A stretch of DNA of 9,836 bases from IMG/VR virus record IMGVR_UViG_2563366976_000007. One strand, given 5' to 3'. Origin of the DNA: a virus. Its lineage: Duplodnaviria; Heunggongvirae; Uroviricota; Caudoviricetes. The notes under the pieces are model-generated. The model saw only the letters and a program-made list of their open reading frames with translations, was not told where the DNA came from and did no database searches. Below, piece by piece: positions 2,596-3,412 of this stretch; within the stretch, counting starts at the first letter, position 1, and each line of letters starts with the position of its first letter. Made by a program: the position numbers and the translations under genes.

Positions 2596-2793
2596 ATGGT
2601 TGCCGTAAATCATATACCACACCTTGTACACACACAAACGGCCTTTGTGTGGCGTTTTCTGGCACTGAGTGCCGGAGAATCCCAAATCATCCACGTAACC
2701 GCCTGGACGGAACGCGAAGCGCGTAGCCGTTGCCCGTCCGGTTGTGTTGCTGTATTCGCCGCCCGTATTCGTCAGGAGGTGTGCCATGCCTGA
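2596..2793 (+). CDS. Possible leader peptide / small upstream ORF (65 aa) in the early-operon leader
   Basis: AGGAG (2586-2590) 5 nt upstream of ATG 2596. Stop TGA (2791-2793) overlaps the start region of the next gene (ATGCCTGA). The protein is low-complexity and unrecognisable, and the same stretch carries a hairpin/T-run, so it may be a regulatory leader rather than a functional protein. Confidence 0.3.
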   Translation: MVAVNHIPHLVHTQTAFVWRFLALSAGESQIIHVTAWTEREARSRCPSGCVAVFAARIRQEVCHA

Positions 2794-3106
2794 CATGACC
2801 AATTACCAGTACCTGATTAATCCGCATTTTAACTGTGAGCATGATATTGCTAAAAAAGTTTATTCCGCTGCGGATGGGGCTACTGACAATATATCAATGG
2901 GTATTGCGTCAATTGGTAGCCTGATGTGGTATGCGTCAGAAAATGAGGAATATGACGAAAAGTCCATGCGCATTGATATGGGTAATATCGGTTTGTTACT
3001 GGCAATGCTTGGGCAGTTTGATATTTCGTTACGGTGCACCATTGAAAATGCCACAGATGCATTAAATGCTATAAAGAAAGCGAATACTGATTTAAATCGG
3101 GGATAA
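2786..3106 (+). CDS. Hypothetical early protein (107 aa)
   Basis: ATG 2786 with AGGAGG (2774-2779) at 6-nt spacing. The track ORF begins at 2744, but the SD supports 2786. First clear gene of the rightward early operon. No recognisable motif. Confidence 0.7.
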   Translation: MPDMTNYQYLINPHFNCEHDIAKKVYSAADGATDNISMGIASIGSLMWYASENEEYDEKSMRIDMGNIGLLLAMLGQFDISLRCTIENATDALNAIKKANTDLNRG

Positions 3107-3112
3107 ATAATC

Positions 3113-3412
3113 ATGAGAACATATTTATCTGGCTTGACTGCCAGCGGTTATGCACACCCCCAAATTATCCCCGGCGCTATTTATCTGGATAAGAACGATA
3201 ACAGAGTAACGGTAAAAGAACTGATGTTTGACCGTGTGTATTTTATCCGTGATGGCTATTCATTTCTTAGTTCGCTGAACGTGGAGATCTTTATTAGCAG
3301 ATTCAGGCGGGAAATCCCGACTTCCAGAAATAACCATGTGTCACGTGTGGATGTGGATAAAAAACTACAGGAACTGAAAAACATGATTGCCGCGTGGAGA
3401 GAGCAGAAATGA
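3113..3412 (+). CDS. Hypothetical early protein (99 aa)
   Basis: ATG 7 nt after the upstream stop. Its TGA stop overlaps the primase ATG (ATGA at 3409-3412), indicating translational coupling. No recognisable motif. Confidence 0.7.
   Translation: MRTYLSGLTASGYAHPQIIPGAIYLDKNDNRVTVKELMFDRVYFIRDGYSFLSSLNVEIFISRFRREIPTSRNNHVSRVDVDKKLQELKNMIAAWREQK

Follow-up and report, generated by a model that had tools for sequence, protein, structure and literature searches.

Directly upstream of its replication gene, an Escherichia coli phage satellite carries two small genes, ORF1 and ORF2. Both are genuinely protein-coding, and the second, ORF2, is by sequence a divergent allele of the already described RgdR/DUF4222 family. 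Together with the first ~144 codons of the replication gene (Pri-Rep), the two form a single inherited block in E. coli, both flanks of which are swapped. Overall, we consider it about an even call that ORF2 is an accessory of the replication module as well as a general modulator of DNA or transcription, with ORF1 as a possible partner. The biology is largely known, and a new helper-exploitation system is not indicated.

A phage-inducible chromosomal island of E. coli

The DNA analyzed here, hereafter the window, is a stretch of 9,836 nucleotides from IMG/VR record IMGVR_UViG_2563366976_000007. Its gene content identifies it as an E. coli phage-inducible chromosomal island (PICI-type satellite), not P4: unidirectional int, alpA and pri-rep genes are followed by a packaging/capsid module, without a full phage gene set. 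Farther downstream lie genes for SSB, a PerC-family protein, a lambda E-type capsid protein, a D-type decoration protein and Nu1-type TerS, which, like the genes for Int, AlpA and Pri-Rep, are all on the plus strand. A close relative of the element sits between yljB and clpS in the E. coli chromosome. The relevant features are the following:

1–1239, plus strand: integrase (gene call, PICI gene set)
1562–1858, plus strand: AlpA-family protein, 43% identical to P4 ORF88
2200–2397, minus strand: YlcI/YnfO-family gene
2596–2793, plus strand: Icd-like small gene, 65 aa (NCBIfam NF033153, phage_ICD_like, E = 5.8e-18), first in the overlapping chain
2774–2779, plus strand: AGGAGG, putative ribosome-binding site of ORF1 as read from the sequence, 6 nt before the ATG at 2786
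2786–3106, plus strand: ORF1, acidic 106-aa protein, predicted two-helix hairpin (phrog_15327)
3113–3412, plus strand: ORF2, basic 99-aa DUF4222 protein of the RgdR family, with PGA at residues 20–22
3409–3412, plus strand: ATGA overlap of the ORF2 stop and the Pri-Rep start, read from the sequence
3409–5226, plus strand: Pri-Rep gene, P4-alpha-related replication protein
3409–3840, plus strand: Pri-Rep N-terminal ~144 aa, uncharacterised domain (phrog_2850)
3841–5226, plus strand: helicase and ori-binding part of Pri-Rep (D5_N, DUF5906, Pox_D5), 51% identical to P4 alpha residues 320–771

The first-pass annotation had likened the two genes to the helper-derepression genes of P4. Their position does correspond: on the P4 map (ORF88 [Vis/AlpA-like], the cI/Ash region, epsilon, ORF151, ORF106 and alpha), ORF1 and ORF2 fall where epsilon, ORF151 and ORF106 lie, and both elements carry small early genes between an AlpA/Vis-like gene plus immunity region and an alpha-type replication gene. 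Beyond this, P4 and the window have only AlpA and the Pri-Rep body in common, P4 ORF106 is separated from alpha by a 14-nt gap, unlike ORF2 and Pri-Rep, which overlap, and the element types differ. Neither ORF1 nor ORF2 showed homology to P4 epsilon, ORF151 or ORF106/DUF5375, BLASTP and HMM comparisons giving nothing better than E = 0.17. Neither protein matched the Pfam “Derepression” model PF25738 at E ≤ 1 (P4 epsilon itself matches with E = 9e-51) or any NCBIfam model, the Icd-like NF033153 included, and none of the PADLOC-DB defence/toxin models was matched at E ≤ 1 by the ORF1, ORF2, Icd-like or YlcI-like proteins. The similarity of the window's Pri-Rep protein to P4 alpha is confined to alpha residues 320–771; the primase part is absent.

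The leader region contains a 239-aa ORF (1868–2587, plus strand) that overlaps the minus-strand YlcI/YnfO-family gene and is probably spurious; PGAP marks its equivalent as an incomplete pseudogene, and similar long read-through ORFs ending in Icd-like sequence are present in other records (P0057, L003:4974-6008). The divergent interval between the YlcI/YnfO-family and Icd-like genes (2434–2530) holds inverted and direct copies of TGTGCGCACA, for instance CATGTGCGCACACATG at 2470–2485 and ctgtgcgcacag just downstream. From their arrangement, these repeats look like a putative operator or regulator-binding site of the early operon. No sigma-70-like promoter was called on the plus strand of this interval, and Rfam models gave no match at gathering score in the window, with noise only at E ≤ 1 in the leader region. 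A separate 10,790-bp E. coli record deposited as a non-mobilizable plasmid (NZ_CP148328.1) carries the ORF2 allele (98% identity) followed by the replication gene and may be an excised, circular copy of the satellite.

Two coding genes chained to the replication gene

The first-pass annotation was right in proposing two small genes that are translationally coupled to the replication gene. ORF1 begins at ATG 2786 and encodes 106 aa plus a stop codon, which had been counted in the earlier figure of 107 aa; the 99 aa given for ORF2 is correct. The ORF1–ORF2 gap is 6 nt, ORF2 runs into Pri-Rep through the ATGA overlap, and GGAGAG lies 7 nt upstream of the Pri-Rep ATG. The geometry of coupling thus stands, but the chain starts further upstream than had been described: the stop of the Icd-like gene and the start of ORF1 share 8 nt (ATGCCTGA), and overlapping or near-abutting genes extend from the Icd-like gene through ORF1 and ORF2 to Pri-Rep. 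No promoter-like or terminator-like sites were found on the plus strand between 2786 and 5226.

Of 76 related IMG/VR loci, 75 have an intact ORF1 and all have an intact ORF2. Read in frame, the two genes have pN/pS ratios of 0.335 (ORF1) and 0.336 (ORF2), whereas the +1 control frame of the same DNA gives 1.18 and 0.71, which marks both as genuine coding sequences. Their GC contents are 0.40 and 0.43, compared with 0.51–0.56 in neighboring genes. PGAP annotates ORF1 in E. coli as a “hypothetical protein” and ORF2 as a “DUF4222 domain-containing protein.” Of the 157 IMG/VR loci with either allele, 152 show an overlap of the DUF4222 stop with the start of the replication gene; for most ORF2-type loci the scan placed this start 15 nt before the ATG, at an in-frame GTG, and PGAP gives the 4-nt ATGA overlap. 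The 4-nt overlap is likewise annotated in the Sakai, Salmonella and E. coli O145 elements.

ORF2 is a divergent relative of RgdR

ORF2 had been described as being without a recognisable motif, which does not hold: it matches Pfam DUF4222 (PF13973) over residues 17–67 with E = 1.2e-15 (57.2 bits, cut-off 27) and phrog_285 with E = 2e-20. It aligns without gaps to RgdR (ECs1581), residues 1–99 on 1–99, with 29% identity (BLASTP E = 5e-12), and the two are colinear over their full length, with an N-terminal tail, a beta core and a C-terminal helix. In an alignment of 40 DUF4222 members, I23, D26, V32, R46, G48, Y49, F60 and F64 are invariant. Residues 20–22 read PGA rather than RGD in the window and in 74 of the 76 loci with the same allele; in this tripeptide, G21 alone is nearly invariant family-wide, and phage DUF4222 members are also without RGD, which makes RGD a mark of the RgdR subgroup and not of the family.

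The structure model predicts a flexible N-terminus, a Tudor/SH3-like beta-barrel core and a C-terminal helix, and the pI of 9.75 is compatible with DNA binding. Sequence searches for solved-structure relatives of ORF1, ORF2 and the Pri-Rep N-terminal domain returned chance-level matches only. The Tudor/SH3-like C-terminal domain of UvrD/PcrA, N-terminal domain of CarD/CdnL and RID of Mfd are 9–17% identical to ORF2, with no sequence similarity. This fold is very common, and RNA polymerase binding, a feature of those three domains, is only a candidate property of ORF2.

RgdR is a 99-aa protein encoded in O-island 51 (prophage Sp7, CP-933C) of EHEC O157:H7 (Flockhart et al. 2012; PMC3378721). 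It raises LEE1 promoter activity, type III secretion and Congo-red binding, lowers motility and binds DNA without sequence specificity, with its mechanism still described as unknown (PMC3378721, PMC10877973). Deletion of rgdR diminished type III secretion and adherence, both of which were restored by RgdR supplied in trans from a plasmid; deletion of the whole island reduced colonization of sheep, and the CFT073 variant C1493 can stand in for RgdR (PMC3378721). Every E. coli PICI analyzed by Fillol-Salom et al. encodes RgdR, classed there as an accessory/virulence gene (PMC6092414).

RgdR and ORF2 thus agree in domain, length, ungapped colinearity and basic pI, and their genes agree in context, each following a small acidic protein gene by 5–6 nt and overlapping a satellite replication gene by 4 nt. 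They differ in sequence and in the RGD/PGA tripeptide, and the upstream partner of RgdR comes from another family. The functional data pertain to RgdR and C1493 only.

DUF4222 genes precede replication proteins of four types

The satellite replication proteins encoded after DUF4222 genes have three different helicase bodies, namely, D5/SF3 (as in the window), RepA/AAA_25 and a 710-aa DUF927-type protein, all of which bear the same uncharacterised N-terminal domain of ~95–144 aa. This domain matched nothing in Pfam or the PDB and only phrog_2850. Wherever a Pri-Rep-type N-terminal domain was observed (3409–3840 in the window, with equivalents in loci L002, L162 and L163), it was preceded by a DUF4222 gene.

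When isolated phages were searched by tblastn, ORF1 and ORF2 gave no match, and phage DUF4222 ORFs surfaced only with the more typical RgdR as query. The weak temperate-phage matches of RgdR were confirmed as DUF4222 ORFs by Pfam (E = 3e-19 and 8e-19). Each is embedded, in an alternative frame, in the 3′ half of a ymfM-like gene and has a stop that overlaps the start codon of an HTH_36/DnaD-like initiator. Such embedded ORFs are found in phage SfIV, in a Klebsiella phage and in the e14 prophage of E. coli K-12. DUF4222 genes hence stand ahead of replication proteins of four types, helper-free phages included, which favors a role in the replication or early module and disfavors a helper-specific one.

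The phage ORFs (phrog_1343) share with ORF2 the Pfam domain (E about 1e-19) and the overlap with the initiator start. A PerC-family gene also follows the replication gene in both settings, immediately in SfIV and, in the window and related PICIs, two genes on, with a hypothetical gene and SSB in between. Unlike ORF2, the phage versions have 59–73 aa and are without the C-terminal helix; their initiator is HTH_36/DnaD-like rather than a helicase with the shared N-terminal domain, and they belong to full phages, not satellites.

A DUF4222 reading frame inside ymfM

The DUF4222 ORFs within ymfM-like genes are unannotated in all three elements:

Prophage e14, E. coli K-12 MG1655, NC_000913.3 1204001–1204180 (L166:2502-2681): embedded DUF4222 ORF
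Phage SfIV, L164:3438-3659: embedded DUF4222 ORF
Klebsiella phage ST101-KPC2phi6.3, L165:2980-3159: embedded DUF4222 ORF

SfIV and the Klebsiella phage differ here at 33 nucleotides, of which 24 are third codon positions in the DUF4222 frame, and protein identity is 86% in this frame versus 50% in the overlapping ymfM frame. The annotated SfIV gp40/YmfM product itself was considered and rejected as a DUF4222 protein, because the match belongs to the other reading frame and the annotated one is unmatched. ymfM is the reported division inhibitor SfiC, and the ymfM ORF that was cloned includes 53 of the 59 DUF4222 codons; the text of a preprint on ymfM/SfiC does not mention a frameshift, stop codon, start codon or truncation. 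For E. coli K-12, the e14 ORF poses a concrete annotation problem, one that bears on a reported division inhibitor.

ORF1 is a rare acidic protein, predicted to be a helical hairpin

ORF1 is acidic (pI 4.5), and its only family match is phrog_15327, to which no function is assigned; Pfam, NCBIfam and PADLOC returned none. The AlphaFold model is a two-helix hairpin (pLDDT 80, helices 19–51 and 58–105), for which nothing in the PDB or BFVD reached E ≤ 0.001 in fold searches; the weaker matches were generic helical hairpins such as EsxB, UvsY and TraM. An exhaustive HMMER scan of 1.8 billion representative proteins yielded 17 matches, two of which, the long proteins P0058 and P0060, were dismissed as repeat-driven artefacts (one TPR protein and one junk repeat); the true family has only a few members, of about 100 aa each. 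As the full alignment offered no conserved stretch for locus scanning, a reduced alignment was used, and it identified one locus among 185,579 species representatives.

Distant ORF1 relatives are located in int-alpA satellites, within the same chain of small early genes, and one is in the early-left operon of a prophage; no recognisable DUF4222 gene adjoins any of them. An Icd-like gene as the universal upstream neighbor of the ORF1 family was not upheld, being present in E. coli and Superficieibacter and undetectable in distant members. The small proteins encoded ahead of RgdR-type alleles have a similar-looking motif, MW..S..NE.DE, which hinted at a relationship to ORF1 (BLASTP E = 0.023); this was rejected on a profile–profile probability of 0.3%. 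Three metagenomic int-alpA satellites (L167, L168 and L172) encode AntA, Bro-N or Ash-family proteins upstream of the ORF1-like gene, together with DUF927-type replication proteins and, in L168, an HK97-type capsid protein. Their AntA/Bro genes are the more obvious candidates for helper anti-repressors.

ORF1, ORF2 and the Pri-Rep N-terminus are inherited together

ORF1 and ORF2 are distributed almost identically among complete E. coli genomes (474 and 472 of 5,426, respectively), and ORF1 lies exactly 6 nt upstream in 76/76 loci with this ORF2 allele. Segment-by-segment comparison delimited the block: ORF1 (74/74 loci), ORF2 (75/75) and the first ~144 Pri-Rep codons (74/74) are always present, and the last of these retain a median nucleotide identity of 99% while the helicase body is swapped. 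On the two sides of the block, the Icd-like segment is recognisably the same in only 14 of 74 loci and the helicase body in 61 of 74. The N-terminal domain is 92–94% identical within the ORF2-allele group, whichever helicase body it is joined to, and 71% identical between allele groups with the same helicase body. RgdR-type alleles are preceded, at a distance of 5 nt, by small acidic proteins (pI about 5) of other families, and near-identical RgdR alleles occur with different upstream partners. A functional trio made up of the acidic hairpin, the DUF4222 protein and the N-terminal domain would fit the block inheritance, and simple physical linkage fits equally well.

Some elements that are otherwise near-identical, such as that of E. 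coli NZ_AP027829.1 (L001:12387-12851), have a second, longer “Icd-like” gene of 154 aa between the 65-aa Icd-like gene and ORF1. The junction immediately upstream of ORF1 is thus a hot spot of recombination or insertion.

A proposed replication-module accessory and its alternatives

The analysis establishes the coding status of the genes, family membership, synteny, coupling geometry, predicted folds and block inheritance, whereas all of the functional steps that follow are inferred. ORF2 would be a standing accessory of the replication module, carried on the same early transcript as the replication initiator; with its stop codon overlapping the initiator start codon, the two proteins are probably produced together. 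It may act through non-sequence-specific DNA binding, protein binding or both, in favor of the early and replication programme of the element, and candidate partners are the Pri-Rep N-terminal domain, RNA polymerase and nucleoid proteins. The effects of RgdR on host promoters (LEE1 up, motility down) would then be by-products or co-opted functions. ORF2 would assist replication itself without being essential to it: rep and ori of EcCICFT073 alone, under an inducible promoter, maintain a plasmid, and an ORF2-type protein is therefore at most auxiliary for replication. ORF1 would be a separate early gene, most likely encoding a protein-binding modulator that is possibly a partner or an antagonist of the basic ORF2. 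We give roughly as much credence as doubt to this reading of ORF2, in which it belongs to the replication module as an auxiliary modulator that binds DNA or protein.

It seems unlikely that ORF2 is mainly a host-directed regulator like RgdR, that is, virulence or behavior cargo (type III secretion, motility, curli) operating outside the satellite cycle, with ORF1 as unrelated cargo. The phenotypes of RgdR deletion and trans-complementation, island deletion and C1493 substitution (PMC3378721), the listing of RgdR among PICI accessory/virulence genes by Fillol-Salom et al. (PMC6092414) and the GC contents of both ORFs below those of their neighbors all speak for such cargo. Yet the RgdR-specific activities are not simply transferable to an allele with 29% identity and PGA in place of RGD, RgdR itself binds DNA non-specifically and its mechanism of action is unsettled in the literature, and DUF4222 genes occur in LEE-negative strains and temperate phages, overlapping the replication initiator, which is unusual for cargo. 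Less probable again is the suggestion, close to that of the first-pass annotation, that ORF1, ORF2 or both exploit the helper or interfere with it, be it as a P4 epsilon-like anti-repressor or interference protein or by inhibiting a host function, for instance cell division. The early location matching that of P4 epsilon/ORF151/ORF106 agrees with this, as do the small acidic helical hairpin of ORF1, a shape seen in protein-binding inhibitors such as TraM (a weak match), the presence of ORF1 relatives in satellite early operons and a prophage early-left operon, and the embedding of the e14 DUF4222 ORF in ymfM, the reported SfiC inhibitor. Against it, the proteins bear no similarity to epsilon, ORF151 or ORF106 and have no PADLOC match, and satellites with ORF1 relatives carry the AntA/Bro-N/Ash-type genes described above. 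Gram-negative PICIs are reported to be switched on by helper induction through AlpA, and not to derepress the helper themselves (PMC6092414). For ORF2 in particular, DUF4222 at the same place in helper-independent temperate phages of the e14/SfIV type argues against a helper-specific role, and the proposed derepression of the helper is left unsupported.

We think it very improbable that ORF1 and ORF2 are mainly translated leaders, whose translation brings ribosomes to the Pri-Rep start and sets its level while the products themselves have little function. Stop/start overlaps or 5–6 nt gaps are indeed kept along the chain in nearly all loci, but purifying selection acts on both proteins (pN/pS 0.34 vs 0.7–1.2 out of frame), ORF2 has a conserved folded domain common to distant elements, RgdR works in trans from a plasmid, and the Pri-Rep start has its own GGAGAG ribosome-binding site.

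Implications for the DUF4222 family

A bolder form of the accessory reading, which we regard as a long shot, is that DUF4222 proteins, ORF2 and RgdR included, are widespread Tudor-like general modulators, carried by phage and satellite replication modules and directed at a central host target such as RNA polymerase or H-NS-type silencing, with ORF1-type hairpins as cognate partners and the Pri-Rep N-terminal domain as a docking site. The combination of phenotypes caused by RgdR is also what relief of H-NS silencing would give. If true, this reading would explain the non-specific DNA binding of RgdR along with increased LEE1 activity, decreased motility and increased Congo-red binding. As a corollary, the e14 DUF4222 ORF, and not the annotated ymfM frame, might underlie the SfiC filamentation phenotype.

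The most useful outcomes of the analysis are the synteny of DUF4222 and replication-initiator genes across classes of elements, the three-part inherited block and the overlooked DUF4222 ORF in e14 ymfM; in addition, about 9% of complete E. coli genomes gain a named gene pair. RgdR has been treated in the EHEC literature as a virulence regulator, whereas its family appears here as a fixed accessory of the replication module in satellites and temperate phages. The predicted Tudor-like fold, the linkage to the replication module and the block inheritance direct attention to the binding partners of these proteins and to the life cycle of the elements that encode them, and not to LEE promoters only.
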